Positions 17,039 to 29,525 are shown, numbered from the stretch's first letter. The stretch is 64,000 nucleotides of DNA from a virus (IMGVR_UViG_3300035490_000050:72455-136454), one strand, 5' to 3'. Numbers and translations: made by a program. The notes: generated from the letters alone by a model not told the origin.

Positions 17039-17080
17039 CGCTTGACATCCATTTGATTCCGTGGGAGTATTGAAACTGAC

Positions 17081-17164
17081 ATGCGATTCCTATTATCCAG
17101 TTCGCGCTATTGCCTCTCATCGTTGCTGAGAGCAGGCTCGCCATATCTGGATAAAGGGATATAA
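17081..17164 (+). CDS. Leader peptide of tRNA array 1 (MRFLLSSSRYCLSSLLRAGSPYLDKGI)
   Basis: 27 aa between TTGACA (17042) and terminator; Leu/Ser/Tyr/Cys codons match downstream tRNAs. Confidence 0.8.
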   Translation: MRFLLSSSRYCLSSLLRAGSPYLDKGI

Positions 17165-17188
17165 GATTTCAGAAATCCAGAGTTTGAC

Positions 17189-17220
17189 GAGCCGCTCAGA
17201 AATGGGCGGCTTTTGTTTTG
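17189..17220 (+). terminator. Attenuator terminator before tRNA array 1
   Basis: GAGCCGCTC-agaaat-GGGCGGCTT then T-tract; 5' arm can pair instead with 17130-17140. Confidence 0.8.
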
Positions 17221-17221
17221 T

Positions 17222-17306
17222 GCGAGATTGGCGAAATTGGGAGCCGCGTCCGATTTAAGATCGGATTCCTTTGGGAGTATGGGTTCAAGTCCCTTATCTC
17301 GCACCA
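17222..17306 (+). tRNA. tRNA-Leu(TAA)
   Basis: Cloverleaf, loop TT-TAA-GA, V-arm, CCA. Confidence 0.92.
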
Positions 17307-17307
17307 T

Positions 17308-17382
17308 GTACCGGAAGCCAATCGGTTAGGCGGCGGATTGCAGACCCGCTCTTGGCGAGTTCGATTCTCGCCCGGTACTCCA
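17308..17382 (+). tRNA. tRNA-Cys(GCA)
   Basis: Loop TT-GCA-GA, U73, CCA. Confidence 0.92.
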
Positions 17383-17393
17383 AGTTTAGTAAG

Positions 17394-17476
17394 GCCCGGA
17401 TGGTGGAATTGGCAGACACACCAGCTTGAGGGGTTGGCGCGAAAGCATACGAGTTCAAGTCTCGTTTCGGGCACCA
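17394..17476 (+). tRNA. tRNA-Leu(GAG)
   Basis: Loop TT-GAG-GG, V-arm, CCA. Confidence 0.95.
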
Positions 17477-17477
17477 T

Positions 17478-17560
17478 GGGGTTGTGGCGGAATTGGCAGA
17501 CGCACCCGGCTCAGGACCGGACGCTTTGGCATAAGAGTTCGACTCTCTTCAGCCCCACCA
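17478..17560 (+). tRNA. tRNA-Leu(CAG)
   Basis: Loop CT-CAG-GA, V-arm, CCA. Confidence 0.95.
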
Positions 17561-17567
17561 TAAGTTT

Positions 17568-17652
17568 GTCGATGTGGCGAAACTGGAAACCGCGATAGGC
17601 TCAAACCCTATTGTCTTATGACTTGCCGGTTCGATCCCGGCCATCGACACCA
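17568..17652 (+). tRNA. tRNA-Leu(CAA)
   Basis: Loop CT-CAA-AC, V-arm, CCA. Confidence 0.93.
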
Positions 17653-17660
17653 AGTTTTAC

Positions 17661-17750
17661 GGAGACGTGGCACAATGGTACTGCACAGCATTGCTAACGC
17701 TGCGATACCCCATAAAGGTATTGGGAGTTCAAGTCTCCCCGTCTCCGCCA
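17661..17750 (+). tRNA. tRNA-Ser(GCT)
   Basis: Loop TT-GCT-AA, long V-arm, GCCA. Confidence 0.93.
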
Positions 17751-17759
17751 TGTTTTAAC

Positions 17760-17850
17760 GGAAGGATGAGCGGAATTGGTATCGCACTCGCTTGGAAAGC
17801 GAGCTTACGTCGAAAGGCGTATGCAGGTTCGAGTCCTGTTCCTTCCGCCA
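17760..17850 (+). tRNA. tRNA-Ser(GGA)
   Basis: Loop TT-GGA-AA, long V-arm, GCCA. Confidence 0.95.
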
Positions 17851-17851
17851 C

Positions 17852-17941
17852 GGTAGAGTTGGGCATGGCTGGCAAGCCCACCGCTCTCGAAAAGCGACGT
17901 ACCGCAAGGTACTGGCAGATCGTTCCTGCCCTCTACCGCCA
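17852..17941 (+). tRNA. tRNA-Ser(CGA)
   Basis: Loop CT-CGA-AA, V-arm, atypical T-loop ATCGTTC, GCCA. Confidence 0.88.
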
Positions 17942-17946
17942 AGTTT

Positions 17947-18036
17947 GGATACGTTAGGCATGTGCCAAGCCTACCCCGTTTGAAGCGGGACGCTCCTGAA
18001 AGGGACTTGGGGGTTGAACTCCCTCCGTATCCGCCA
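17947..18036 (+). tRNA. tRNA-Ser(TGA)
   Basis: Loop TT-TGA-AG, V-arm, GCCA. Confidence 0.85.
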
Positions 18037-18041
18037 GTTGT

Positions 18042-18132
18042 GCGCGTGTGGCTCAGTGGCGACGGCGGCAGTCTGTAGAACTGCTACCCTTTGCGGTGAA
18101 CATCGGTGGTTCGACTCCATCCACGCGCACCA
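18042..18132 (+). tRNA. tRNA-Tyr(GTA)
   Basis: Loop CT-GTA-GA, V-arm, ACCA. Confidence 0.93.
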
Positions 18133-18134
18133 CT

Positions 18135-18287
18135 CTACTTTGCCAGCGCCCGTTTTACAGTTCTCTTTTTCTGAGAAACCTTGGTGTAGGGAGTCTGGTT
18201 GAGGGCAGGTTTCACTGTTCCTGAGACCTTGTGTTTGGTGTACGGTTTTTCTTGCAGGGCTGGCTTGACTTCGCGCTTCGTTGGCAT
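18135..18287 (-). CDS. 50-aa basic repeat peptide (VKPAL...PYTK repeats)
   Basis: GAGGTGG RBS; internal repeat; below ORF-track length cutoff. Confidence 0.55.
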   Translation of the reverse strand: MPTKREVKPALQEKPYTKHKVSGTVKPALNQTPYTKVSQKKRTVKRALAK

Positions 18288-18395
18288 TGATTCCACCTCA
18301 TAAACAGATTAGCACAATAGGAATGTGTGGTACAATTCAGGTATTCCGTCGTTCCGGCCCGACGTTAAGCAACCGGAAAATCTGAAAGGAAAACC

Positions 18396-18857
18396 ATGAG
18401 CAAGATAAAAGGTGTAGACACGTCCGTTTCATCCACCCCAAAATTCTCACAGAACAAGCCTTCAGGCGATTTCACCCACAAAGACCTCAAGCCGTGCGGA
18501 GAAGGCGGTTGTCTCCCACTAGAACAGCCTGTAGGATTCGATGAGGTTGATATTCCTGAAGTGACCTCTCCTATCCCAACCAACTTTTCTACGGTCGTCC
18601 AGATCGTCAACGGCGTAGTAACGCCAACGCTGCAAGTACTGCTCTACGATGTACTAAGCGTGATCGACGCCTCAATCCCAAACAAGGATCAGAATCGGGC
18701 GGTCAAGAAGTTGATTCACGATGGCTTTGACAAGGCGTATCTGGACATCATCCGAGAAGCCTACCCTGATTCCAACTTTGCAATTGGACCAGGACACGCC
18801 TTAACGCCTCTAGCCGACAAGAGTATGGCAATTCAGGCGGCAATCAGCAAGGTGTAA
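18396..18857 (+). CDS. Hypothetical protein
   Basis: AAGGA RBS; TG-TACAAT -10 upstream. Confidence 0.65.
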   Translation: MSKIKGVDTSVSSTPKFSQNKPSGDFTHKDLKPCGEGGCLPLEQPVGFDEVDIPEVTSPIPTNFSTVVQIVNGVVTPTLQVLLYDVLSVIDASIPNKDQNRAVKKLIHDGFDKAYLDIIREAYPDSNFAIGPGHALTPLADKSMAIQAAISKV

Positions 18858-18874
18858 AAAGCGCAGAATTATCC

Positions 18875-18903
18875 TTGACAACTCAGGAAAACGGTAGTAC
18901 CTT
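18875..18903 (+). promoter_or_regulatory. sigma70-type promoter directly before initiator-like tRNA
   Basis: TTGACA-17-TACCTT. Confidence 0.7.
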
Positions 18904-18909
18904 GGGAAA

Positions 18910-18984
18910 TGCGGGTTGGTAGCGCAGTGTCATACGTCAGGCTCATAACCTGAAAATCTGGTGCAAGTCCAGTACCCGCAACCA
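18910..18984 (+). tRNA. tRNA-Met(CAT), initiator-like
   Basis: TCAGG-CTCATAA-CCTGA arm, (T)GCGGG..CCCGCA-ACCA acceptor. Confidence 0.85.
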
Positions 18985-19192
18985 ATCTGGAGGATGTCAT
19001 GGGAAATGGCATAATTCCGCATTAGCGGCTAGAAACCGCTAATCAGTAGAGCGAGAATCCGCTGCGGGAGGTAGTATATGCAGCAGCAGAAAAGGTTGGG
19101 GGAGATGGAGAAATCCCTCCCCCAGTCTCACAAGTAAAACGAGGCGTCGACACAAACCCACGCCTATCGCCTACAAATGAAAGTGGTGTGTT

Positions 19193-19876
19193 TTGAAAAT
19201 CATCGGCGGTCATGATTATTATGATGTAGCACTGTCGATGGGCATTGATCCACGGATTGTTCTCTTGCGCGGAAAGAGTAAGAGCATACCAGTAAAGGCT
19301 GCTGGCGGGAGTTTGCTTGATCGGTACTTGGAACTCAAGCCACAGGTTACGTACAACACCTACGGCATAGGAATTGAGAATGTTGCCGTGGCATTTTGTG
19401 GGAAGGTTTATCGTGGCGCTGTAGGATTGAAGTCGCTGGAGAAGCCAGAAGGACTCTGGTCAGCAGATAAGGCAAGAGCATTCGTCGCGCAGGAAAAGAA
19501 TAGAAAGATTGACGTGGACTCACGGTGGTATGATCGCAGAAACAGGATGACCATGGAGGAATATTTCACTCCTTTTGATGCTCCTGATGCTTTGCGGAAC
19601 TACATGATCGCCAACAAGATTTCGATTCTGGTTGAAGAGCCGCCAAAGTACCGTGGCGAGGAAAGCTATTTTCAGGTCAATCCTTTCACGCTGAAGCAAC
19701 TAGGATTCGCAAAGGCTCTTGACCCATACACGGCTTTTCAGGAACTTTCGATGTGGATCGGTGGAGTTCTTGGGGGAACGAGTCCAGAGATCGTGACGAT
19801 CAAGGATGACAAGGTTTTGATTGAGAATCACGGGTTTGACAACCGATTCTCATTTCGCGGTCCTCGGATCGCATAG
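19193..19876 (+). CDS. Conserved phage hypothetical protein
   Basis: MKII...DYYD start, DPYTAFQEL, HGFD..SFR end. Confidence 0.7.
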   Translation: MKIIGGHDYYDVALSMGIDPRIVLLRGKSKSIPVKAAGGSLLDRYLELKPQVTYNTYGIGIENVAVAFCGKVYRGAVGLKSLEKPEGLWSADKARAFVAQEKNRKIDVDSRWYDRRNRMTMEEYFTPFDAPDALRNYMIANKISILVEEPPKYRGEESYFQVNPFTLKQLGFAKALDPYTAFQELSMWIGGVLGGTSPEIVTIKDDKVLIENHGFDNRFSFRGPRIA

Positions 19877-19883
19877 GATTTAC

Positions 19884-19959
19884 GCAACCGTAGCATAGCG
19901 GCTAATGTACTTGATTGTCGATCAAGGGTACGCCAGTTCGAATCTGGTCGGTTGCGCCA
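19884..19959 (+). tRNA. tRNA-Asp(GTC)
   Basis: Loop TT-GTC-GA, GCCA. Confidence 0.92.
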
Positions 19960-19974
19960 TAATCTGAGGACGCC

Positions 19975-20481
19975 ATGAGAGATCGCGCAAAGACAATAGC
20001 ATCTCTCAGACGGCTTATAGAGCGTCCTGGTACGCCGCAGGAAGGCGAAACAGCAAGACGCCTATTAGAAATGATGGGCGGGAAGGATTGGGTTCCGCGT
20101 CCTTTCGATGCAAGCATGTATCCTTGCGGAACTGAGGTTTTCTACTGCTACTGGACATACGATAACGAACATGGAGTGGTTTGCAAGCAGCCGCCAAAGA
20201 TAGAAAGAGGCCAATGGTGGATGCGAATCAAATTCGATAAGCTGAAGCAGCCGCGTTGGGTAGCAGTAACGAGCGAACTTGGATGCCATTTAGGTTTTGA
20301 GCCGTTCAAGGGAAACGACAAGGAAGTTCTCTACCATCGGGATATAGAATGGGAAGAGACGTATCGGAAGATGATTGAAGAATTCAGGGCGCTAGGAATT
20401 GACGTAAGCCGACTTGAGCACGAAGAGGTACAAGATGCACGCGATACCGGGTTGGATGTGCGGAGTGGACTTCTCCTGTGA
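19975..20481 (+). CDS. Hypothetical protein
   Basis: GAGG RBS; N-terminal RPGTPQEGETA motif. Confidence 0.65.
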   Translation: MRDRAKTIASLRRLIERPGTPQEGETARRLLEMMGGKDWVPRPFDASMYPCGTEVFYCYWTYDNEHGVVCKQPPKIERGQWWMRIKFDKLKQPRWVAVTSELGCHLGFEPFKGNDKEVLYHRDIEWEETYRKMIEEFRALGIDVSRLEHEEVQDARDTGLDVRSGLLL

Positions 20482-20729
20482 ATTAGGGGAAGCGAACGGC
20501 GGGAATACGATCTATCCGTCAGAGGAAAATCTCCGCGCCAACAGGAAATGCGTAAATTCCTCAGCGCCAGAGGATAAGATGTGCTACCCTGTTGAAGTCG
20601 TCACGATGTCGAAAGAGGACTTTCTTGAACTGGTAGAGAAGGCTGGCATTGATCCTGCGGCGATTCGGTCAAGCAATTGGGGACCAGCGGTTTGGACGAA
20701 AGAACAGGGATTGATTCAGTAGAGTTTTT

Positions 20730-20807
20730 GAGATGGCAGAGTGCGTTGGTTTGCTCCACGGCTTTTCACACCGTGCCACGCGGGTTCGATTCCCGTCCAT
20801 CTCGCCA
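20730..20807 (+). tRNA. tRNA-Glu(TTC)
   Basis: Loop TT-TTC-AC, GCCA. Confidence 0.88.
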
Positions 20808-20813
20808 AGTTTT

Positions 20814-20891
20814 GGGGTCACCGTCTAAATGGATTTGGATACCTGATTCTCACTCAGGAGATTGCGAGTTCGATCCTCGCTGACCCTACCA
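20814..20891 (+). tRNA. tRNA-Glu(CTC)
   Basis: Loop TT-CTC-AC, ACCA. Confidence 0.92.
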
Positions 20892-20969
20892 CAATTCAAG
20901 ACTCGCGACCTGATCTGAGTCAACGGGCTGGCACGGTGACCAGTGCATCAACCGAAAAGGAGAATAACG

Positions 20970-21344
20970 ATGCGTACCCGTTGCAAGTTCAGAGTCGTTG
21001 GTATTGAGAGTGTTGAACACGCGATCTTCAAGAAGGTATACAAGGCCGATGTGAGCGCCGAAGAATATGAAGCGATCACATCTCAAGAGTGGACCGAATA
21101 TCCTCCCAATCCAGACAGGCGTCTCGGTGGTGGTCCTGAGCCAAAGTTGTACAAGCAGATATTTCTAGCGAACGCTCAGAATATCCGATTGGCTGCTCAG
21201 TACGACCCTTCCATTCCCGAAGATCAGCGGTTCATGGAAGCCACACCCTCTGGGGAAATCAAGATGTATATTTCCAATCCCGCAGTGATAAACGGCTTCA
21301 AGATCGGAACGAACTACTACGTTGATCTGACGCCCTGCGATTAA
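20970..21344 (+). CDS. Conserved phage hypothetical protein
   Basis: AGGAG RBS; RCKFRV...F.EATPSGEI.M.I.NP motif. Confidence 0.7.
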   Translation: MRTRCKFRVVGIESVEHAIFKKVYKADVSAEEYEAITSQEWTEYPPNPDRRLGGGPEPKLYKQIFLANAQNIRLAAQYDPSIPEDQRFMEATPSGEIKMYISNPAVINGFKIGTNYYVDLTPCD

Positions 21345-21365
21345 CATTGTCTGCCGTACCAGCAC

Positions 21366-21405
21366 AAAAAGAGAAGCCCACCGATGTCTTGGTGGGCCTT
21401 TCTTT
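21366..21405. terminator. Bidirectional intrinsic terminator
   Basis: A-tract, GCCCACCGA/TTGGTGGGC stem, T-tract between convergent genes. Confidence 0.75.
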
Positions 21406-21432
21406 GCACTCCCCTCGTAAGGTGATACCAGT

Positions 21433-22182
21433 TTACTTCTTTGGACTTCCCATGTCAACAGGAGCCATCCGACGCGACATTCCTGCCGCTCTCATTGCCC
21501 GCACGGGAACGCTCTTGTAGAAGTCGTTCGTCGTTCGTCCAACGCTTGCGGAGAACGCCATCGTAGCGTGCGCAGTGTTGGCGTAGGCTGCTCTTACATT
21601 GCTTTGGTCGAAGACAACCGAATTGGAGAGATTGATGCCCATTGAATCTCCAGCCGTGAACGCACTGAGATCAGCGCCGAGGAAGACGAAGGTCCAGTTT
21701 CCTTCCTTCTCTTTATTCTCGATCAGTTCCTTGATCTTCGCAAGATTGAATTCTCGTGACGAATTTTCCTGCCCGTCCGTCAAGATGACGGTGAGAATCT
21801 TTGGCATCATCCCAAGTGACGGAACGCCTGCAAATGATGCTTCGACCTTGGAAACAGTGGACCCGATAGCGTCGAGAAGCGCGGTGCCGCCGCATGGAAC
21901 GTAACTCTGCTTGGTGAGTTCCGGCACCTCAGAGAGAGCGATGGATACGTGACGGTTTTCAAACCGCGTATCGAACAATGTAAGGCTGAAAGCATACGTC
22001 GATTTCTTGTCTTTTTTCAACTCACTGATATACGTGTTGAAACCGCCGATGGTGTCGTCCAAACAGGTAGCCATGGAACCGGACTTGTCGAGAACAAAGT
22101 TGATGAGAACCTTACCGTTTTTTGCGGCGGCTGGATTTGACTTCTTTGCAATCTTCTTTGGTGCGGATTTCTTTGCTGGCAT
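21433..22182 (-). CDS. VWA-domain protein
   Basis: MIDAS LDKSGSM, GGTALLDAIG, ILTDGQENSSREF. Confidence 0.9.
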   Translation of the reverse strand: MPAKKSAPKKIAKKSNPAAAKNGKVLINFVLDKSGSMATCLDDTIGGFNTYISELKKDKKSTYAFSLTLFDTRFENRHVSIALSEVPELTKQSYVPCGGTALLDAIGSTVSKVEASFAGVPSLGMMPKILTVILTDGQENSSREFNLAKIKELIENKEKEGNWTFVFLGADLSAFTAGDSMGINLSNSVVFDQSNVRAAYANTAHATMAFSASVGRTTNDFYKSVPVRAMRAAGMSRRMAPVDMGSPKK

Positions 22183-22417
22183 TCGTATTCTCCTGTGCTG
22201 CTAACGCGGTTGAAAGTGTTGATTCAGGTACGCGGTAGCACCGCTCCGCGCCAAGGAAGCTGTAGATTGCAGGTCCAGGTTCACGCCGCGAGTTGTAAAC
22301 GTCATTCAGATATTGCGGCGAGACACCCATCGTCTGCGCAAATTCCTTTTGCGTCCTCTCCCCTTGAATCTTCTGCATGATTTCCAAGAGTCCTGCGATA
22401 TTCGTCACCCTGTACAT
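22112..22417 (-). CDS. XRE-family HTH protein
   Basis: TQKEFAQTMGVSPQYLNDV..RREPG; leaderless promoter TTGCAT-17-TATTAT. Confidence 0.75.
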   Translation of the reverse strand: MYRVTNIAGLLEIMQKIQGERTQKEFAQTMGVSPQYLNDVYNSRREPGPAIYSFLGAERCYRVPESTLSTALAAQENTNASKEIRTKEDCKEVKSSRRKKR

Positions 22418-22479
22418 AAATACTATAATACGCGGATTTGTGGTATAATGCAAGTAGAAAGTTTTTGAAAAGGAGTTTC

Positions 22480-23070
22480 ATGGGAGCGAAGCGTTTACCT
22501 GCCACCGTAAAAAATCTGACGCCTATGCGTGCTGCATGGCTTGCTGCTCTGATTGATGGAGAAGGAACAATCAGTATCCACCTAACGCCTAACGGATCAA
22601 AACGTGCGTGGATCGCGGTTTACAACACAAACACCGATATTCTTGACAAATGTGCCTATGTGTGTGGCGCTGGCGTTGTTCGGAAGAAAATGCCGGGAAA
22701 GAAGAATGATGGATTCAAACGATTGCAAATGTGGGAATGGGAACTTGATAGAGCAAGAGATGCTCACCATCTTCTATGCCAACTTTATCCGTACCTGATA
22801 ATCAAGCAACACAAAGCAATAGACCTCATTGTTCATTGGAGGGACGAAAGAACCAACGATATTTCAGAAAACGACCACGACGACGTAAAGGAAATGAAGA
22901 TGGCGCAGCGTCATTTAAGCAACAGGGAATTTTCGGTCGCACTTGGTTTCGGATACGGATGCGTCAGCGGAATATATTCTCGGAATGATCCGCTTTCATC
23001 GAGAGTCAGAATCGCGTTGGATAAATACAAGACAGAAATGCCAAACAGAAAAGAATTATCTTGGCGATGA
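22480..23070 (+). CDS. LAGLIDADG endonuclease-like protein with C-terminal HTH
   Basis: AWLAALIDGEGTI, LYPYLIIK. Confidence 0.85.
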   Translation: MGAKRLPATVKNLTPMRAAWLAALIDGEGTISIHLTPNGSKRAWIAVYNTNTDILDKCAYVCGAGVVRKKMPGKKNDGFKRLQMWEWELDRARDAHHLLCQLYPYLIIKQHKAIDLIVHWRDERTNDISENDHDDVKEMKMAQRHLSNREFSVALGFGYGCVSGIYSRNDPLSSRVRIALDKYKTEMPNRKELSWR

Positions 23071-23079
23071 AAATAGTCC

Positions 23080-23108
23080 TTGACAGCGATTCCCATCTGC
23101 GCTAAGGT
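23080..23108 (+). promoter_or_regulatory. sigma70-type promoter of tRNA array 2
   Basis: TTGACA-17-TAAGGT; ATG of leader 7 nt later (leaderless). Confidence 0.8.
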
Positions 23109-23115
23109 AGAAAAC

Positions 23116-23446: not shown

Positions 23447-23520
23447 TGCCCGTTCGTTCAACGGTAGGACACCGCCCTTTGGAGGCGAGGATGGCGGTTC
23501 AAGTCCGTCACGGGTAGCCA
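23447..23520 (+). tRNA. tRNA-Gln(TTG)
   Basis: U1-A72, loop CT-TTG-GA, GCCA. Confidence 0.94.
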
Positions 23521-23527
23521 AATTAAC

Positions 23528-23601
23528 GCGGGCATAGCTCAGTGGTAGAGTGCTGGCTTGCCGAGCCGGAGACGCGGATTCAAGTTCCGCTGCCCGCTCC
23601 A
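23528..23601 (+). tRNA. tRNA-Gly(GCC)
   Basis: Loop TT-GCC-GA, TCCA. Confidence 0.95.
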
Positions 23602-23682
23602 TATTGAAAGAGGAAGACGATGAAGGTTGATTTGGACGCCAGCATGGAATCGGTATACGGAAGGCTGGCAGGAAGGTTTCAG

Positions 23683-23757
23683 GCTGCTGTGGCAGAGAGC
23701 TTATGCGCTGACCCCGTAAGTCAGAATACAAGGGTTGAAATCCCTTCGGCAGCTCCA
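23683..23757 (+). tRNA. tRNA-Thr(CGT), C33 variant
   Basis: Loop CC-CGT-AA, TCCA. Confidence 0.85.
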
Positions 23758-23782
23758 GAATGTGACGAAAGCGAGTAGGACG

Positions 23783-24328
23783 ATGAACTTACTGAAAAAA
23801 CCCGTACTTTTGCTCAACGCATCGTATGAGGCAATTCGCATAATTTCAGCAAAGAGATCGCTGACTCTCTTAACGAAAGGAAAAGTTGCGGTCGAACTTG
23901 CAACGGACAGGGAAGTTTATCCTGGCGTGTTTTTGCCTAGCGTTATCCGTCTTCTTGTCTACAAGCATGTTCCCGTCAGAATGCAGCAGATGACGCGCAA
24001 AAACCTGTACTTGAGAGACGGTTACAAATGTGGCTATTGCGGTGAGCAGTTTTCTGGAAGCGAACTGACTTTGGATCACATTATCCCAAAGGCGCAAGGT
24101 GGAAAGAACACGTATGAGAACTTGATTACCTGCTGCCGCAAGGATAACCATCGGAAAGCGGATCGGACGCCTCAACAGGCAGGAATGGTTTTGTTGAGAC
24201 GGCCTATCCCGGCAACGGTTCACACTGGTAGGCACATCATGCGTTCGCTAGGATTAGAAACGCAGGGATGGGCAAAATATCTTTGGGCTGATGCTGATGG
24301 TGAGCAGAGGTTAGTGGCAAGAGGATGA
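23783..24328 (+). CDS. HNH endonuclease (McrA-like) inside tRNA array
   Basis: VLLLNASYE, PSVIRL, RDGYKCGYCG, TLDHIIPKAQGG, NL..CC..NHRK..RTP. Confidence 0.92.
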   Translation: MNLLKKPVLLLNASYEAIRIISAKRSLTLLTKGKVAVELATDREVYPGVFLPSVIRLLVYKHVPVRMQQMTRKNLYLRDGYKCGYCGEQFSGSELTLDHIIPKAQGGKNTYENLITCCRKDNHRKADRTPQQAGMVLLRRPIPATVHTGRHIMRSLGLETQGWAKYLWADADGEQRLVARG

Positions 24329-24332
24329 GTTT

Positions 24333-24407
24333 GCACTCTAAACATTGCTGGTGATGCCTTCCCCTGTAAGGAAGTTTAACGGAGTTCGAGTCTCCGAGAG
24401 TGCTCCA
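24333..24407 (+). tRNA. tRNA-Thr(TGT), C33 variant
   Basis: Loop CC-TGT-AA, TCCA. Confidence 0.87.
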
Positions 24408-24410
24408 AGT

Positions 24411-24487
24411 GTGGCCGTAGTTCAAGAGGAAGAACACATGCCTGTGGCGCATGTATGATGGGCTTTCGAGCAGCCCCGGCCACCCCA
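24411..24487 (+). tRNA. tRNA-His(GTG)
   Basis: Loop CT-GTG-GC, C73, CCA. Confidence 0.88.
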
Positions 24488-24492
24488 TTTGT

Positions 24493-24567
24493 GGGGGTGT
24501 AGTGACAATGAGAACACGTCCCGTTTGCACCGGGAAAATCGGAGTTTGAATCTCCGCATCTCCACCA
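24493..24567 (+). tRNA. tRNA-Ala(TGC)
   Basis: G3.U70, loop TT-TGC-AC, ACCA. Confidence 0.9.
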
Positions 24568-24577
24568 CGTAGTTTTT

Positions 24578-24653
24578 GTCTACTGAGCTAGTGCGGTCAT
24601 AGCAATCGCCTGAAGAGCGATGGAATCCGGTTCGACTCCGGGAGTAGGCACCA
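24578..24653 (+). tRNA. tRNA-Phe(GAA)
   Basis: Loop CT-GAA-GA, ACCA. Confidence 0.93.
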
Positions 24654-24654
24654 T

Positions 24655-24728
24655 CAGGGAATAGTGTAGTGCTAACATCCGTGTTTTGGGCACACGTGTC
24701 CGGGGTTGGAATCCCCGTTCCCTGACCA
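24655..24728 (+). tRNA. tRNA-Pro(TGG)
   Basis: C1-G72, loop TT-TGG-GC, ACCA. Confidence 0.9.
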
Positions 24729-24733
24729 TTTTT

Positions 24734-24808
24734 CAACCCGTCGTTCAACGGAAAGGACGATGCGCTACGAACGCATAAATGGGGATTCGACTTCCTCCGG
24801 GTTGACCA
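24734..24808 (+). tRNA. tRNA-Arg(ACG)
   Basis: Loop CT-ACG-AA, ACCA. Confidence 0.92.
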
Positions 24809-24844
24809 TAGTTCGCAAGCACGAAATAAAGTTGAAAATAATGC

Positions 24845-24873
24845 TTGCAAATGTCTGGAATGTGTAGTAGGCT
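24845..24873 (+). promoter_or_regulatory. sigma70-type promoter of Y-like RNA / HNH / TROVE operon
   Basis: TTGCAA-17-TAGGCT. Confidence 0.7.
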
Positions 24874-24902
24874 TGATTTCGTTGGGTTTTGAAACACAGG
24901 TT

Positions 24903-25027
24903 TGCGTCTACTGTTGAGCGTACATGATGACTAGCTCACTCGGTAGAGCGATTCCCTTCAAAGGAATAGGTCACTGGTTCGATTCCAGTGTCATCTACTT
25001 CGGTAGATCGCTCAACGTCTTGACGCA
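24903..25027 (+). ncRNA. Y-RNA-like RNA 1: outer stem with TACT/GTCTT loop enclosing a cloverleaf (anticodon TCA) and a UUCG hairpin
   Basis: TGCGTC/GACGCA and GTTGAGCG/CGCTCAAC stems; cloverleaf 24926-24995. Confidence 0.75.
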
Positions 25028-25033
25028 GTAAAT

Positions 25034-25151
25034 TTGGGTGTAATTTTCGGCTTACATGAGCCTGTTTGGTCAGGCACTTGCCGTTGGAGCAAACTAACCC
25101 GGTTCGATTCCGGGATGTTACCCGAAAGGGTTGCCGAGAGACTTCACCCAA
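25034..25151 (+). ncRNA. Y-RNA-like RNA 2: same architecture as RNA 1
   Basis: TTGGGTG/CACCCAA, TAAT/GACTT loop, TTTCGGC/GCCGAGA, D, anticodon and T arms, GAAA hairpin. Confidence 0.72.
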
Positions 25152-25159
25152 TAAGTTGT

Positions 25160-25277
25160 GGGGGACCGCTTAGTAAACCGAGGACGACTTCTCGGAAACG
25201 AGTACGGTTCTAGGATACATGACAAGCATACAGCCGAAAGGCTGTGTATCGTGGCTAAACACCACGGTCCTCCACCA
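25160..25277 (+). ncRNA. tRNA-like RNA 3 with Ala-type acceptor (G3.U70, ACCA) and Y-like loop
   Basis: GGGGGAC/GTCCTCC-ACCA; AGGAC-GACTT-CTCG-gaaa-CGAG-TACG-GTTCT. Confidence 0.68.
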
Positions 25278-25298
25278 AAGTTTTGTAGTACAAGTTGT

Positions 25299-25419
25299 GG
25301 CGGGTTAGCAAAACGGAAAAGCTCTGCATGTCTTGACGCGCAATCGTCTATTTTGCAGGTTACATGCACATTCACTCGGAGAATGCACAATCTAGGTTCG
25401 ACTCCTAGACCCGCCACCA
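25299..25419 (+). ncRNA. tRNA-like RNA 4 with CCA end, anticodon loop replaced by Y-like loop
   Basis: GGCGGGT/ACCCGCC-ACCA, D arm, CTGCA-t-GTCTT-GACG-cgcaat-CGTC-TATT-t-TGCAG, V-arm, canonical T arm. Confidence 0.75.
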
Positions 25420-25628
25420 TAAGATTTACCGCATGGGAGTGCGGAAACGAGTTTGGCTGACACTGGTTTCGTGGATACATGTTTTTGGGGATCATATCCC
25501 CACCCCCCGCCTAAGCCCTTTGGCAACGGAGGATTTAGGCGGGGGTTCTGAGGGCCGCAAGGCTGCTTAGAAAACAATTGCCCACAACCGACTTTCAGCC
25601 ACTATTTTTGTGCCTTGGGAGAGGGAAT

Positions 25629-26189
25629 ATGGCCAGCGGTGATCGTTTCTACATGCTATCCTTGCGCCATCGCCCTGCGGTGTACGGCGATCTCGGAAAC
25701 ATCCTCAAAATCGAAGGTTTGGTGGTAGGCGGAGAAGGGGCGCATGTAATTCTTACGCTTCCCTCTTCCGATCTAAAAACTGATACCTACTGGGATGCTA
25801 ATACATTCCCAGCAATTCATCAGTTATCCCTTGAGGAGTGGACCGATTTTCTAGCGCGTACTGACGATCCAGAAATTCTAATCGGTCAAGCGAAGGCTTT
25901 CCATCGCAAATGCCGTTATGAAATTTCAGGGGCGGTACAGCAGAAGATATGGGTAGCTGATGGTCTAAAGTGCATGTACTGCGGAGTCAGGATGGGCAGG
26001 GCACAACTCACAGTGGACCATTGGGAATCGCTTGAGGCTGGTGGAAAGAACGATAGCTCAAATTTTCTCGCAGCCTGCAAGACGTGTAATAAGGCCAAAG
26101 GTTCCATGCCGCCGCGTGACTGGTGCAGCCTTCGCAAAATTGATTACGACTTCTTTGTGGAGTATCTGAGAACGAGGAAGTTGCCTTAA
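25629..26189 (+). CDS. HNH endonuclease-domain protein
   Basis: DGLKCMYCG, LTVDH, GG....NFLAACKTCNKAKG. Confidence 0.85.
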   Translation: MASGDRFYMLSLRHRPAVYGDLGNILKIEGLVVGGEGAHVILTLPSSDLKTDTYWDANTFPAIHQLSLEEWTDFLARTDDPEILIGQAKAFHRKCRYEISGAVQQKIWVADGLKCMYCGVRMGRAQLTVDHWESLEAGGKNDSSNFLAACKTCNKAKGSMPPRDWCSLRKIDYDFFVEYLRTRKLP

Positions 26190-26217
26190 CACTTTTCGCA
26201 CCGGGAGGGCGAATACT

Positions 26218-27711
26218 ATGGCAGAAACAGGGCTTACACGTCAAAGAATTTTGTCGGAATTGTCGAAGAGTCCACACGGCTCTTTGAAAGAGTATCTTCC
26301 TATCGGCAAACAGGCCGTTCAACAGGAAGGTGAATTTTATCAACACATGCTTGCCTGGGATAGGACGCATGGGCAGATTAGGGACAGCAAGGTTGCGCTT
26401 CCTGTGATCGGCTTGGCTTTTGAGAAGGATGAGGAATTACTCGACAACAGCCTTGCTCACATCGCTCTTTTGGGGCCGCGTGAACTGGCAAGAGCATATC
26501 GGTTTGGATTGGAGATTCGTCTCCCTGGCAAGATGCGTCAGTTGCGTAGGCTTGTCGAAGACTACCTACACCAAAAGGAGCAAGACAAAGGTTGGGATCA
26601 TCTGGCAATCCAGCACAGGGGTACGCTGAAGGAACTCTACTCTCTGGCGCACGCAAAGCCTGAAAAGGAGAGAACCAACGTCGTTCTCTATGGCAGGAAC
26701 TTCGACAAGACAAAGGCACCGCTGCCCAAGGGATCAGTCTTTGAGGTAGTAGCAAACCTCAAGAACATGAGTCCTACGGAGGCTGCTGGTTCGATCATGA
26801 AGTACCGGATTCCTTTCCTTATCGCCATGGGCGCGTTAGGCGCAAAGGCGAAGGAGCCGGATTTGGTACTGGCTTTGATCGGAGCCATGTCTGCAACGGA
26901 GTTGACCACGAACGTCAAGATGCTGGAGAAGTTGGGCCTGAAGACGAATCCTGCGCTGCGTGGGGCATTCGACAACGCATTGGCTAAGGCGGCTACGTCG
27001 AAGAAGAATACGCTCAAGACGACTCAGGCGGTCGAGGCCGTACAGGACGAGGGATTGAAGGAGAAGCTCCGTGGACTACAGGCAAAGCAGATAGCGGCTG
27101 CGGGTGGTCCAGACGGCGACTGGGTAATTTTAGTTGACAAATCTGGATCGATGCACCATGCAATCGAAACTGGTTGCCATGTTGCAGGGGCGCTCACACA
27201 GTTCGTCAAAGGAAAGGTTGGGTTGATTTTCTTCGATACCTCTCCTATGGCGGTGGACGTAACCGGCTTGTCGCTGGACCAAATCAAGAAGGCGACACGA
27301 CACTTCACAGCGAACGGTGGAACATCCATCGGCTGCGGTCTGAATCGGATGCTGGTAGAGAAAGTTGCTGTGGATGGAATTGTGATCGTGTCGGACGGTG
27401 GAGACAACACTGCTCCACTATTCCATGACGTATATCCGAAGTACGCGAAATTCTGCGATAAGGATGTGCCGGTGTATTTCTACCAACTTAGCGGAGAATC
27501 GGACAAGCTGACGCCGAACATGCAACGGGCAGGAATCGAGATGACAACATTCGATTTGCGCGGTTCAAAGCTGGACTACTACAGCATTCCGAACACGGTC
27601 AAGACGCTTCGCAGTAACCAGTACAGTTTGGTTGAGGAAATACTCTCGACCCCGCTTTTAACCCTCAACACCGTGCTCAAGGGAGCGCAGAAAGGACTGG
27701 TGACAGTCTAA
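26218..27711 (+). CDS. TROVE/Ro60-like protein with C-terminal VWA domain
   Basis: Helical N-terminal domain (IRDSK.ALP, LKELY..AH.KP, MSATEL..N...LEK.G), MIDAS VDKSGSM, GGTSIG, IVIVSDGGDN; adjacent Y-like RNAs. Confidence 0.78.
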   Translation: MAETGLTRQRILSELSKSPHGSLKEYLPIGKQAVQQEGEFYQHMLAWDRTHGQIRDSKVALPVIGLAFEKDEELLDNSLAHIALLGPRELARAYRFGLEIRLPGKMRQLRRLVEDYLHQKEQDKGWDHLAIQHRGTLKELYSLAHAKPEKERTNVVLYGRNFDKTKAPLPKGSVFEVVANLKNMSPTEAAGSIMKYRIPFLIAMGALGAKAKEPDLVLALIGAMSATELTTNVKMLEKLGLKTNPALRGAFDNALAKAATSKKNTLKTTQAVEAVQDEGLKEKLRGLQAKQIAAAGGPDGDWVILVDKSGSMHHAIETGCHVAGALTQFVKGKVGLIFFDTSPMAVDVTGLSLDQIKKATRHFTANGGTSIGCGLNRMLVEKVAVDGIVIVSDGGDNTAPLFHDVYPKYAKFCDKDVPVYFYQLSGESDKLTPNMQRAGIEMTTFDLRGSKLDYYSIPNTVKTLRSNQYSLVEEILSTPLLTLNTVLKGAQKGLVTV

Positions 27712-28010
27712 TGAATATCAACGCACTGAAGAACTTCAACGCCGACCGTATGGACTTGGATGACATGGTAGGCTTGCTTGCGGACTGCAAGGCACTCCGC
27801 GCTGAGTACGAGGCGCTCCAGATCGAAGAGCCTGAGTATATCGACACAACCATCAAGGCAATTCGCCGGGAGATCACATCCCGCAACGCTGACAAGATCG
27901 CGGCTCGTAAGCGTGAGCTTGCCGCACGGATCGACAGCCTCAAGACTCCTGCACAGAAGAAGGCAGAACTTGAGAAGGAGCTTGCCAAGTTGGAAGCCGT
28001 TCCTGTCTAA
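27711..28010 (+). CDS. Small coiled-coil protein coupled to TROVE gene
   Basis: TAATG overlap; charged helical sequence. Confidence 0.7.
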   Translation: MNINALKNFNADRMDLDDMVGLLADCKALRAEYEALQIEEPEYIDTTIKAIRREITSRNADKIAARKRELAARIDSLKTPAQKKAELEKELAKLEAVPV

Positions 28011-28031
28011 CCCATCAACCATTTGAGCGAA

Positions 28032-28062
28032 GGGGCACAGGATAACGTGCCCCACTTTTTTC
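28032..28062 (+). terminator. Intrinsic terminator of TROVE operon
   Basis: GGGGCAC-aggataac-GTGCCCC then T-tract. Confidence 0.8.
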
Positions 28063-28064
28063 TC

Positions 28065-28093
28065 TTGCATTCCTAATCGACCTGGGGTACAGT
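28065..28093 (+). promoter_or_regulatory. sigma70-type promoter of tRNA array 3
   Basis: TTGCAT-17-TACAGT; GTG 7 nt later. Confidence 0.78.
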
Positions 28094-28100
28094 TTCTATA

Positions 28101-28184
28101 GTGATGAAGAGGATCATTGGTATCACCTCTTTTCTGTTCGCCCACCCCCTTCGGCTCTCCCAAGTGTCCGGGGATGTAGGCTAA
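28101..28184 (+). CDS. Leader ORF A of tRNA array 3 (MMKRIIGITSFLFAHPLRLSQVSGDVG)
   Basis: Starts at predicted TSS; stop overlaps RBS of leader B. Confidence 0.6.
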   Translation: MMKRIIGITSFLFAHPLRLSQVSGDVG

Positions 28185-28191
28185 GGAAAAC

Positions 28192-28278
28192 ATGCAGACG
28201 ACCACCAGACGCGGGACCATAACCAGAATGACCAAGCGGGTCATTTGGGGAATAGTGCGCGAGGGTTGGGACGATTAA
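28192..28278 (+). CDS. Leader peptide B of tRNA array 3 (MQTTTRRGTITRMTKRVIWGIVREGWDD)
   Basis: AAGGA RBS; codons 3-23 only T,R,G,I,M,K,V,W, the amino acids of array 3. Confidence 0.8.
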   Translation: MQTTTRRGTITRMTKRVIWGIVREGWDD

Positions 28279-28302
28279 ATCTGCAAAAAGATTGAATCTA
28301 CC

Positions 28303-28328
28303 AGCCCGGTCTTAGGATCGGGCTTTTT
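28303..28328 (+). terminator. Attenuator terminator before tRNA array 3
   Basis: AGCCCGGTC-ttag-GATCGGGCT-TTTT; CCAGCCC can pair instead with GGGTTGG 28263-28269. Confidence 0.8.
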
Positions 28329-28357
28329 GATGTTTGAAAACTGAAACGAATAATCAT

Positions 28358-28432
28358 GCCTCGTTAAGCTAGTTGGGAAACTGTCGGTCTCCAAAGCCGA
28401 ACTCAGGGGTTCAAATCCTCTACGGGGTGCCA
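28358..28432 (+). tRNA. tRNA-Trp(CCA)
   Basis: Loop CT-CCA-AA, GCCA. Confidence 0.9.
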
Positions 28433-28437
28433 TTTTT

Positions 28438-28515
28438 GCCAGTGTAGTTCAGTCGGCTTAGAACGCTGCATTCATAACGCAGAGGTCAACAGTTCAATCC
28501 TGTTCACTGGCACCA
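28438..28515 (+). tRNA. tRNA(CAT), elongator Met or Ile2
   Basis: Loop TT-CAT-AA, ACCA; identity not resolvable by eye. Confidence 0.88.
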
Positions 28516-28519
28516 AGTT

Positions 28520-28617
28520 GGAGCGGCGGCGCATAATTCACTGGCGGTATCGGACAGCTAAGACTACCGAGACGTGCAGAACTCACCGAAAGGTTAGCCG
28601 TTGCAGTGGGCCGCTCC
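28520..28617 (+). ncRNA. Unassigned structured RNA inside array 3
   Basis: GGAGCGGC/GCCGCTCC closing stem, CGGTA/TACCG and ACC-gaaa-GGT hairpins. Confidence 0.5.
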
Positions 28618-28677
28618 GAAAGTTCACGGCTGTAAAGCCTATACCGATGGCGCAAGGCCATCCTGCCGTGATTAAGT

Positions 28678-28700
28678 TTCGAGTCCTAGTGGGGGCACCA
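28678..28700 (+). pseudogene. Orphan tRNA 3' fragment
   Basis: TTCGAGTCCTAGTGGGGGCACCA with no matching 5' half. Confidence 0.55.
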
Positions 28701-28704
28701 TAGT

Positions 28705-28791
28705 GGAACCGTGGCCTAGTCTGGTTTTGGGCACCCGGCTCTTACCCGGCGCAGAAATGCAACGCAGGTTCAAATCCTGCCGGTTCCACCA
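28705..28791 (+). tRNA. tRNA-Lys(CTT) with long variable arm
   Basis: Loop CT-CTT-AC; V-arm GCA-gaaa-TGC; ACCA. Confidence 0.88.
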
Positions 28792-28801
28792 ACACTTTTA
28801 C

Positions 28802-28887
28802 GGAGTCGTACTCGAATTGGATGCAGAGACCTGACTTTTAATCAGCGGGGTAACCCAATGGGGGTTCGAGTCCCCCCGGCTCCACCA
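28802..28887 (+). tRNA. tRNA-Lys(TTT) with long variable arm
   Basis: Loop CT-TTT-AA; V-arm GGG-gtaa-CCC; ACCA. Confidence 0.88.
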
Positions 28888-28892
28888 GTTAC

Positions 28893-28969
28893 GCGGCGGT
28901 ATTCCCCTCGTCTTCTAAACGAGTAAGGATAATTGGAATATGTGAGTTCGATCCTCACCCGCTGCTCCA
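28893..28969 (+). tRNA. Non-canonical tRNA-Arg(TCT), D-arm relocated
   Basis: Acceptor, anticodon (CT-TCT-AA) and T arms intact; 7-nt linker instead of D arm; 18-nt variable region. Confidence 0.75.
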
Positions 28970-28973
28970 TTTT

Positions 28974-29050
28974 GGTCCCGTACCGGCCATGTTTCCTAAA
29001 CATGTAACCGTAAGTGGATGATGTCAGTTCGAGCCTGACCGGGACTTCCA
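28974..29050 (+). tRNA. Non-canonical tRNA-Arg(CCT), D-arm relocated
   Basis: Same geometry; loop TT-CCT-AA. Confidence 0.75.
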
Positions 29051-29054
29051 TTTT

Positions 29055-29131
29055 GCTGCCGTACCAGCCGCGCCTCCGAAGCGCGATACTGTAACTGAAT
29101 GATGCAGGTTTGAGTCCTGTCGGCAGCGCCA
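29055..29131 (+). tRNA. Non-canonical tRNA-Arg(CCG), D-arm relocated
   Basis: Same geometry; loop CT-CCG-AA. Confidence 0.75.
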
Positions 29132-29136
29132 GTTTT

Positions 29137-29214
29137 GGGAACGTGGGCCAGCGGCGACGCCACCTGTCCTACAAACAGGTATTACCGGAAGTTCGAGTCT
29201 TCCCGTTCCCACCA
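29137..29214 (+). tRNA. tRNA-Val(TAC), C33 variant
   Basis: Loop CC-TAC-AA, ACCA. Confidence 0.88.
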
Positions 29215-29290
29215 AGTTCGGAGTCCTACGGTTAGAAGCCGTGGGAGGTTACAACGAGCAGATGCAACACCTGCTACTCTGGGATGATTT

Positions 29291-29364
29291 GCCGATGTAG
29301 CTCAGTGATAGAGTGCCGCACTGGTATTGCGGTGACGAGGGTTTGATTCCCTCCTTCGGCCCCA
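29291..29364 (+). tRNA. tRNA-Thr(GGT)
   Basis: Loop CT-GGT-AT, CCA. Confidence 0.88.
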
Positions 29365-29365
29365 T

Positions 29366-29443
29366 GGCGGTCTAGCTCACATTGAGAAGAGCGCAGTCCT
29401 GATAAGACTGAGGCACCCAGTTCAATTCTGGGGACCGCCACCA
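29366..29443 (+). tRNA. tRNA-Ile(GAT)
   Basis: Loop CT-GAT-AA, ACCA. Confidence 0.92.
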
Positions 29444-29449
29444 TAGTTT

Positions 29450-29525
29450 GCGGGAGTAACTCAGCGGCTAGAGTGTCAGCCTTCCAAGCTGTTCGTCGAG
29501 GGTTCGAGTCCCTTCTCCCGCTCCA
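29450..29525 (+). tRNA. tRNA-Gly(TCC)
   Basis: Loop CT-TCC-AA, TCCA. Confidence 0.95.

Follow-up and report, generated by a model that had tools for sequence, protein, structure and literature searches.

The window analysed in this work (IMGVR_UViG_3300035490_000050:72455-136454, 64,000 nucleotides (nt), with positions counted from its first letter) is the 3' 64 kb of a 136,454-bp contig of a virus, an uncultured soil or peat phage. All of the transfer RNA (tRNA) genes of the window are located on the + strand and are confined to positions 17222-29525, where they form three arrays of 10, 11 and 11 tRNAs, with Asp, Glu and a tRNA with the anticodon UCA as scattered extras. Each array is directly preceded by an open reading frame (ORF) of 27, 26 or 28 codons and then by a terminator-like hairpin. 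Our analyses, which followed up an earlier note made from this DNA alone, indicate that each of these cassettes is probably a ribosome-mediated transcription attenuator governing the tRNA array behind it, in which the short leader ORF consists largely of codons that are read by the tRNAs of that array.

The contents of the three arrays that had been described in the earlier note are correct, with some genes being recovered at a lowered threshold or by eye. The program ARAGORN reports 31 tRNAs in the window, and Rfam 28 at gathering score. Ser-TGA (17947-18036), Arg-CCT and Arg-CCG were recovered only with a lowered ARAGORN threshold, Arg-TCT was recognised by eye and then folded, and Glu-CTC at 20814-20888 is a further gene obtained at the lowered threshold or by eye. 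The components of the cassettes and their arrays are as follows.

17042-17070, + strand: promoter-like site 1, with the -35 element TTGACA (17042-17047), a 17-nt spacer with TGn and the -10-like element GAGTAT (17065-17070); read directly.
17081-17164, + strand: leader ORF 1, 27 codons, MRFLLSSSRYCLSSLLRAGSPYLDKGI; the run that is cognate to array 1 comprises codons 5-16 (LSSSRYCLSSLL).
17189-17221, + strand: intrinsic terminator 1, with a 10-bp stem, a 4-nt loop and a TTTTGTTTT tail.
17222-18132, + strand: tRNA array 1, Leu-TAA, Cys-GCA, Leu-GAG, Leu-CAG, Leu-CAA, Ser-GCT, Ser-GGA, Ser-CGA, Ser-TGA and Tyr-GTA (ARAGORN, Rfam).
23080-23108, + strand: promoter-like site 2, with TTGACA (23080-23085), a 17-nt spacer and TAAGGT (23103-23108); read directly.
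23116-23196, + strand: leader ORF 2, 26 codons, MKTRFQNANPTATATPQGHGAESGSQ; the run that is cognate to array 2 comprises codons 3-21 (TRFQNANPTATATPQGHGA).
23230-23270, + strand: terminator-like hairpin 2, with a 12-bp stem (9 G-C pairs), an 8-nt loop and a weak tail, GGTGCTTTTA.
23279-24808, + strand: tRNA array 2, Asn-GTT, Gln-CTG, Gln-TTG, Gly-GCC, Thr-CGT, an HNH endonuclease ORF (23735-24328), Thr-TGT, His-GTG, Ala-TGC, Phe-GAA, Pro-TGG and Arg-ACG (ARAGORN, Rfam, Pfam).
28065-28093, + strand: promoter-like site 3, with TTGCAT, a 17-nt spacer and TACAGT; read directly.
28192-28278, + strand: leader ORF 3, 28 codons, MQTTTRRGTITRMTKRVIWGIVREGWDD; the run that is cognate to array 3 comprises codons 4-22 (TTRRGTITRMTKRVIWGIV).
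28303-28329, + strand: intrinsic terminator 3, with a 9-bp stem, a 4-nt loop and a TTTTT tail.
28358-29525, + strand: tRNA array 3, Trp-CCA, a tRNA with the anticodon CAT, a 190-nt stretch, Lys-CTT, Lys-TTT, three atypical Arg elements (TCT, CCT and CCG; 28892-29133), Val-TAC, Thr-GGT, Ile-GAT and Gly-TCC (ARAGORN, Rfam, folding).

The order of promoter, short ORF, terminator and array, which the earlier note had seen three times, is confirmed, the promoters being recognised by direct reading of the DNA. The three best terminator-like hairpins on the + strand between positions 16000 and 30500 are the ones behind the three ORFs (17189-17212, 23230-23261 and 28303-28324), and they lie 24, 33 and 24 nt from the end of the ORF and 9, 17 and 33 nt from the first tRNA in cassettes 1, 2 and 3, respectively. 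Gaps of only 9 and 17 nt leave no room for a promoter of their own, and hence arrays 1 and 2 would depend on read-through of their hairpins. As judged from sequence features, terminators 1 and 3 have a canonical stem and U-tract, and cassette 2 has a strong hairpin with a weak tail. A consensus promoter scan did not list the promoters of the three leaders; the sites given above are recognisable by reading the DNA directly and their layout recurs in related phages.

The correspondence between the codons of each leader and the anticodons of the array behind it was scored using strict wobble rules, under which the counts for leader 3 depend on whether the CAT tRNA reads ATA. In leader 1, 11 of the 12 codons at positions 5-16 are cognate to array 1, all 10 tRNAs of this array are covered, and the five Leu and four Ser codons are all different. 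For leader 2, codons 3-21 cover all 11 tRNAs of array 2 and 18 of the 19 are cognate to it, and for leader 3, 16 of the 19 codons at positions 4-22 are cognate to array 3 (14/19 if the CAT tRNA does not read ATA), with 10 of its 11 tRNAs covered and no AGG codon present for Arg-CCT. The full coverage of arrays 1 and 2 asserted in the earlier note is hence upheld, whereas the run that it had begun at codon 4 of leader 1 starts with a CTA that has no cognate in array 1, and the runs of leaders 2 and 3, which it had described as confined to the sets of their own arrays, are so to the extent of the counts given here.

An unbiased scan of all 20-codon windows in the six frames of the whole contig (n = 272,790), which were ranked by the number of tRNAs covered and then by the number of cognate codons, placed the top-ranked window for each of the three arrays inside its own leader. 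When the cognate count alone was used with 16-codon windows, leader 2 was the unique maximum and leader 3 was tied with one other locus. Tested against chance in this manner, the codon match is real and far beyond what chance would produce, and chance is excluded for the set of three. The codons at positions 2-3 of each leader generally belong to the set of another array, and leaders 1 and 2 share the sequence CGATTCC after the start (17084-17090 and 23125-23131), which encodes Arg-Phe with both codons cognate to array 2.

Relatives of this phage were recruited by means of a neighbouring 497-aa ORF, for which 9 viral contigs and 37 metagenome contigs with 61-97% identity were found, and the related records analysed as a whole were G001, G002 and G005. 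Arrays 1, 2 and 3 yielded 4, 7 and 17 distinct homologous leaders, respectively; these are mutually related and the counts over them do not represent independent events. The arrays are syntenic among the relatives, and homologues of leader 1 were found in G001, G002 and G005. In a search of the named phage collection, megablast with positions 16700-29600 matched 11 records, in each case no more than a short stretch of tRNA-Gly that amounts to 1% of the query or less, and tblastn with the 497-aa neighbour gave two distant uncultured records and no cultured relative. Seven viral-contig matches to a 107-aa ORF upstream of leader 1, each of 24 residues, were judged to be unrelated and were not used.

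The codon match is retained in these relatives. The own leader is the top window for 6 of the 9 arrays in the whole relatives, viz. all three arrays of G001, arrays 2 and 3 of G002 and array 1 of G005 (tied). When the homologues are scored with the union of the anticodons over G000-G002, the core codons cognate to the own array amount to 49/66 for leader 1, 111/136 for leader 2 and 251/318 for leader 3. In the leader-2 family, the order of the residues differs among the homologues and the composition stays within the set of the array, which is expected from selection on codon content and not on the peptide. For the amino acids that are served by both arrays 2 and 3, the synonymous codons were counted across the homologues as array-2-type to array-3-type:

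Thr codons, ACA/ACG to ACC/ACT: 21:5 in leader 2 and 6:63 in leader 3.
Gly codons, GGC/GGT to GGA/GGG: 10:0 in leader 2 and 0:31 in leader 3.
Arg codons, CGA/CGC/CGT to AGA/AGG/CGG: 10:1 in leader 2 and 5:43 in leader 3.

We consider this division of synonyms by array to be the sharpest result of the homologue comparison. In G005, where arrays 1 and 3 are adjacent to each other, leader 3 is situated between them together with a promoter and a terminator of its own, which fits a control unit belonging to each array. In G005, L049 and L068 an ORF or extra DNA is inserted between leader 2 and tRNA-Asn.

Several characteristics of the leaders and their homologues bear on whether these ORFs are translated. 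Among the 28 homologues the start codon is ATG in 24 and GTG in 4, all three stop codons occur, the ORF lengths (18-29 codons) vary by whole codons, and frame +1 is open in just 1 of the 28. The -10 element is followed by the start codon at a distance of 10 nt in cassette 1 and by the ATG at a distance of 7 nt in cassette 2, and hence these two mRNAs would be leaderless or nearly so. A similar layout is seen in the relatives, where three leader-1 homologues have TTGACA or TTGTCA, N17, a weak -10 and a start codon 6-9 nt later, and the leader-2 homologues have TTGACA-N17/18-TAACGT or TATCGT with a start codon 7-10 nt downstream. An alternative start for leader 2 at TTG 23080, given in an ORF listing, was rejected, because this TTG belongs to the -35 element TTGACA and the homologues start at the equivalent ATG (6/7) or GTG (1/7). 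Cassette 3 of this genome has about 98 nt between the promoter-like site and the ATG, with an AAGGA Shine-Dalgarno sequence at 28183-28187. It is one of 7 of the 17 leader-3 homologues in which, as judged by eye, an insertion between promoter and ORF is accompanied by AAGGA 4-8 nt before the ATG; in the other 10, the start codon is 6-7 nt after a -10-like hexamer. An initiation signal, whether leaderless or Shine-Dalgarno, thus appears to be kept in both layouts. The distance from the stop codon to the terminator arm is constant at 22-30 nt in all 17 leader-3 homologues, and in the 14 of these with the short form the stop codon is at, or a few nt from, the 5' strand of the antiterminator described below. 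These characteristics suggest that the leader ORFs are probably translated; a coupling to RNA polymerase and a response to tRNA supply are inferred. After the terminator of leader 3, nearly all 17 homologues carry the motif (C)TTTGA(A/C)AA (28330-28340 in the window) 5-30 nt before tRNA-Trp, which could be a processing site or a -35 element.

The minimum-energy folds of the three cassettes consist of a structured leader followed by the terminator (z = -2.9, -5.2 and -3.8 for leaders 1, 2 and 3). Equilibrium folding with the full terminator, in which pairs were allowed across the ribosome, gave a terminator probability of 1.00 at every ribosome position for leader 2, owing to the high stability of this hairpin. 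The approach was replaced by a model of the nascent RNA, in which all RNA from the 5' end to a point 12 nt beyond the first base of the A-site codon is removed to represent the ribosome and the remainder is folded as far as the terminator loop. The alternative pairings predicted are the following.

17130-17197, + strand: predicted antiterminator 1, in which codons 17-21 supply the 5' strand (17130-17143) and 17185-17197 is the 3' strand, which shares 9 nt with the 10-nt terminator 5' arm; an inner hairpin (17146-17181) lies between the two strands.
23178-23241, + strand: predicted antiterminator 2, formed by codons 21-26 (23178-23196) and the full length of the terminator 5' arm (23230-23241), with an inner hairpin (23200-23224) between them.
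28259-28307, + strand: predicted antiterminator 3, formed by GGGTTGG 28263-28269 (codons 24-26) and CCAGCCC 28301-28307, with an inner hairpin between them; it overlaps the terminator 5' arm by the first 5 nt of the latter.

In each of the three cassettes, this model has the terminator 5' arm paired to the 3' end of the leader ORF when the A-site is within the cognate run; this upstream pairing is lost after the A-site passes codon 16 in leader 1 or codon 21 in leaders 2 and 3, which is the end of the cognate run. The same profile of ribosome positions is obtained for 4/4 leader-1, 5/5 leader-2 and 17/17 leader-3 homologues with a detectable terminator (26/26). When the upstream segment was shuffled, 3 of 200 shuffles matched the real value for leader 1 and 1 of 200 for leader 2. 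The antiterminator tails of the 14 short-form leader-3 homologues, aligned with MAFFT, are too ragged in their loops for a consensus structure, and duplex energies were used instead, in which a cross duplex combines the 5' strand of one homologue with the 3' strand of another. The own duplexes are more stable than the cross duplexes for leader 3 (-17.65 vs -15.55 kcal/mol, 3/10,000 permutations, 17 homologues) and for leader 2 (-17.2 vs -14.3 kcal/mol, 3/120 permutations, 5 homologues), a difference that fits compensatory change and indicates co-variation of the two strands. A G-U pair of leader 2 in this genome is U-A in G002, where the 3' arm of the terminator has changed to match.

A partly similar situation is found in the Caulobacter phage phiCbK, where three tRNA blocks each have an annotated terminator in front of them. 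For two of these blocks (Pro/Lys/Leu/Ala/Ser and Tyr/Phe/Val/Ile/Gln), the best of the 11,884 windows of 20 codons in the 6-kb locus lies in the small ORF that comes before the block; for the Glu/Asp block this is not so. On this sequence evidence, phiCbK would represent an independent lineage in which the same device is partly confirmed.

What is shown in silico comprises the parts of the cassettes, the match of leader codons to arrays together with its conservation, and the predicted alternative pairings. The reading of the cassettes as attenuators, already proposed in the earlier note, is supported by the ranking of codon windows, the conservation of the ORFs, the maintenance of composition over order, the division of synonyms, the ribosome-position model and the energies of own and cross duplexes. 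The mechanism that we propose is as follows. Transcription would start at a sigma-70-type promoter and the short ORF would be translated at once, its start being leaderless or nearly so or, where a 5' untranslated region has been inserted, provided with a Shine-Dalgarno sequence. A fast ribosome reaching the end of the ORF would mask the 5' strand of the antiterminator, which is located in the last codons or directly at the stop codon, so that the terminator hairpin forms and the array is left untranscribed. A ribosome waiting at any codon read by the array would instead permit the antiterminator to capture the 5' arm of the terminator, and RNA polymerase would enter the tRNA genes. The result would be a negative feedback, in which an array is made when the decoding capacity for its own codons is short and is silenced once its products abound, whether the shortage is due to the codon demand of the phage, to loss or decay of host tRNA or to cleavage by host nucleases.

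A number of observations weigh against this mechanism. With regard to the codon match, leader 1 is not the best window of the contig by cognate count alone (16 codons), and foreign codons are present in the leaders (positions 2-3, CGC in leaders 1 and 3, and His in several leader-3 homologues). The own leader is not the top window for array 1 of G002 or for array 3 of G005, where the list of tRNAs is incomplete and the winning window is the Met/Ile-rich start of a gene; the leader of array 2 in G005, separated from this array by the inserted ORF, is second to another locus on an equal score (17 hits, 13 tRNAs covered). The co-variation of leader codons with array content among relatives, which had been suggested as a check, is not clearly positive because the arrays are nearly identical in all of the relatives. 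The differences that do occur (Leu-TAG vs GAG/CAG, Pro-CGG, Ile-TAT and the Thr-GGT moved in G005) have no clear counterpart in the leaders, and there is one mismatch, in that Thr-GGT sits in array 2 of G005 and four ACC codons nevertheless remain in its leader 3. Leader 2 of L069 is without a His codon despite the tRNA-His downstream. The Asp, Glu and Met tRNAs are without such a leader, and in G002 they are found behind a plain promoter, TTGCAC-N17-TACTGT (record 88880-88920).

Further such observations concern expression and the switch itself. The U-tract of the leader-2 hairpin is poor, and 2 of the 7 homologues are without any U-tract, and a promoter-like site (28327-28354, 9/12 matches) is located between terminator 3 and tRNA-Trp. 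GTG starts, which are weak on leaderless-type mRNAs in many bacteria, occur on mRNAs of this type in three leader-3 homologues and one leader-2 homologue. A search of sequencing runs gave 24 entries, 20 of which contain the stretch or part of it; four of these are metatranscriptome runs with 10-12% of its sequence words, and they gave short exact contigs in several places, which carry no information on ends, strand or level; one contig, from a relative, spans leader 1, and high depth in the tRNA bins comes from other organisms. The complementarity of the leader 3' end to the terminator 5' arm that the earlier note had reported is present in all three cassettes and exceeds shuffles in leaders 1 and 2, but not in leader 3 of this genome (130/200 shuffles). 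The measure used, upstream pairing of the arm, has a high background in shuffles (mean ~0.6), and of the 17 leader-3 homologues, this genome included, six fall at 0-2/100 shuffles and eleven at 7-78/100. In the nascent-RNA model without a ribosome, the terminator 5' arm still pairs upstream (P 0.80-0.99), and there is no trp-like default-off state based on 1:2 pairing; this absence weakens the claim of a trp-type attenuator and not the claim that the cassettes work by attenuation.

These observations have to be considered together with other possible explanations of the cassettes. The promoter, small ORF and terminator may form independent genes making a micropeptide or a small RNA, with the arrays expressed by constitutive leak or from other promoters and the codon match devoid of regulatory meaning. 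The weak U-tract of hairpin 2 and the promoter-like site before tRNA-Trp would be in accord with such genes, as would the conservation of parts of leader 3 (KRVIWG) as peptide; however, a peptide with a function of its own would not have its residues scrambled and its composition retained, as is seen in the leader-2 family, and independent genes offer no reason for synonymous codons that are chosen by array, for three genome-wide best matches that are each to the array behind them, or for terminators placed so close to the first tRNAs of arrays 1 and 2, and we regard this explanation as unlikely. That the leaders are instead a translation-independent RNA switch, binding tRNAs through codon-like triplets as a T-box or decoy, or serve only as a processing or stability element of the tRNA precursor, appears very improbable. 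The regions are structured, as the z-scores indicate, but no T-box or leader family is found at the Rfam threshold, the triplets are contiguous in a single frame between a conserved start and stop, the position of the stop relative to the antiterminator is kept while its identity varies, and the start contexts alternate between leaderless and Shine-Dalgarno. It could also be argued that, since the tRNAs of the phage serve all but 6 sense codons (strict wobble), any ORF will match some array, and that the correspondence is due to chance or is a by-product of phage codon usage. This likelihood is negligible, as the match is specific to the adjacent array in all three cassettes and is kept in the relatives, and the window ranking, in this genome and in the relatives, together with the synonym split effectively refutes it.

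The attenuators proposed here resemble known systems in some respects and differ from them in others. The enterobacterial attenuators include the trpL, hisL, ilvGMEDA and thr leaders, some of which contain several kinds of regulatory codons. The cassettes described here share with them a short ORF rich in regulatory codons, a terminator-like hairpin, a predicted overlapping antiterminator and a decision that would be made by the position of the ribosome, and they would share with the multivalent leaders the sensing of more than one amino acid by one leader. They differ in that tRNAs and not biosynthetic enzymes would be regulated, and in that 8-9 amino acids and up to 11 isoacceptors are represented, mostly by 1-2 codons each, whereas the enterobacterial leaders repeat one or three. 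In addition, the synonyms are chosen here per isoacceptor, most of the starts are leaderless, no 1:2 anti-antiterminator is predicted and no leader family of Rfam matches. None of these families reached the gathering score, the best being Trp_leader at 28261-28331 (24 bits vs 41, E = 0.36), and there is no match to the T-box family up to E = 1 in 16500-30000. T-box riboswitches bind a single uncharged tRNA directly, without a ribosome, and control synthetase or amino-acid genes; they likewise act by transcription attenuation that reads tRNA status through codon-anticodon interaction, but differ from the present cassettes in needing no ribosome, and no T-box is matched here.

In mycobacteria, leaderless polycysteine short ORFs are described as cysteine-responsive attenuators (bioRxiv 10.1101/834739). 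As in the cassettes proposed here, a leaderless short first cistron tunes a downstream operon, and they differ, according to the available part of that report, in sensing a single amino acid and in having protein-coding targets that are cellular and not viral. The trn operon of Anabaena sp. PCC 7120 is a long tRNA array that is induced under translational stress, its control being described as acting through promoter direct repeats that are bound by the repressor TrcR (PMC8421152; PMC10272220). It is similar in that an accessory tRNA array is switched on when translation is impaired, and different in that the control is at the level of the promoter, with no codon-matched ORF in the accessible portions of these papers; the terms attenuat-, leader and terminator occur 0 times in PMC8421152. 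Phage tRNAs have also been presented as counter-measures to tRNA-targeting defences (PMC10264068, PMC11464382), which provides a reason for a phage to replace specific isoacceptors on demand; the accessible portions of these papers treat the tRNAs themselves and mention no regulatory leaders. A full-text search of the main texts of open-access papers brought up no description of tRNA genes controlled by leader-peptide attenuation, in agreement with the earlier note, whose author knew of no such description, and the literature searched likewise gave no regulatory logic for phage tRNA arrays. The hardware of attenuation is known; the novelty would lie in tRNA genes as its target and in a multiplex sensor that resolves isoacceptors.

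The arrays and their surroundings exhibit a number of other characteristics. Array 1 contains every class II tRNA of the phage (Leu, Ser and Tyr, with a long variable arm) and Cys. The three Arg elements of array 3 (28892-29133; anticodons TCT, CCT and CCG) are tRNA-like, in tandem and about 78 nt each, and have in common an unusual fold that lacks the D arm: the acceptor stem has 7 bp, the anticodon stem is extended underneath by 3 bp, and some 12 unpaired nt come before a normal T arm. None of them is matched by Rfam, two are seen by ARAGORN only at the lowered threshold, and normal-looking Arg tRNAs are present at their position in the relatives. The Lys tRNAs CTT and TTT (28705-28887) are 86-87 nt long, with an extra hairpin in the variable arm as in class II tRNAs; those of the relatives are 75-77 nt, and the annotation of phiCbK has Lys tRNAs of 88-91 nt. 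A UCA-anticodon tRNA, which reads UGA, is located 3' of array 2 (24925-24998), and relatives have tRNAs with CTA (amber) or TTA (ochre) anticodons in its place, L002/L069 having two CTA tRNAs and a leader 2 that terminates with TAG. These suppressor-type tRNAs prompted an examination of stop-codon reassignment, for which crude totals of stop-to-stop ORFs were uninformative.

The regions 25040-25430 and 28516-28704 contain T-arm and acceptor-like ends (…GGTTCGA…CCA) without a complete tRNA, and neither has a match in Rfam. ARAGORN at the lowered threshold gives doubtful calls of 'Gln' at 25051-25123 and 'Met' at 25432-25511, with similar calls at the same place in relatives. They adjoin the 497-aa vWA-domain ORF, and the 190-nt stretch of array 3 is the site of Ile-TAT in relatives. 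A Pfam search of nine neighbouring ORFs found only HNH endonucleases in two ORFs (23735-24328, between Thr-CGT and Thr-TGT, and 25578-26189) and, at the cut-off, the vWA domain (ORF 26218-27708); a guess that this 497-aa protein is Ro60/TROVE-like is without Pfam support and was discarded. Since the first HNH ORF lies inside array 2, at a position where relatives also have an ORF, an attenuator of this array would gate the ORF as well. The Asp (19884) and Glu (20730) tRNAs of the window are each directly 3' of a protein-coding ORF.

A more far-reaching view of these leaders, which is possible but doubtful, is that they are multiplex isoacceptor-level sensors serving as an inducible counter-defence, in which the depletion of an isoacceptor by a host anticodon nuclease or by other tRNA-depleting immunity would stall the ribosome at its codon and switch on the array carrying the replacement. 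It may further be speculated, again with considerable reservation, that the atypical Lys tRNAs (with the extra arm) and Arg tRNAs (without a D arm) of array 3 are nuclease-resistant versions, and that the device is a general and undescribed layer of phage gene control which extends to unrelated phage lineages, the cultured phage phiCbK being one of them. The cassettes are compact (~180 nt) and modular, which renders the attenuator mechanism easily testable, and they could act as natural reporters of the availability of single isoacceptors. The reasons why phages carry tRNA genes, and the use they make of them, have been debated for decades, with codon compensation set against escape from tRNA-targeting defence. 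If the attenuator mechanism is correct, the supply of tRNAs by this phage would be self-adjusting, through a leader that measures the speed of decoding for the codons that its array serves, and classical attenuation would be extended from the supply of amino acids to the tRNA pool. The sequence of a leader would then provide a direct read-out of the codons that the phage expects to become limiting.

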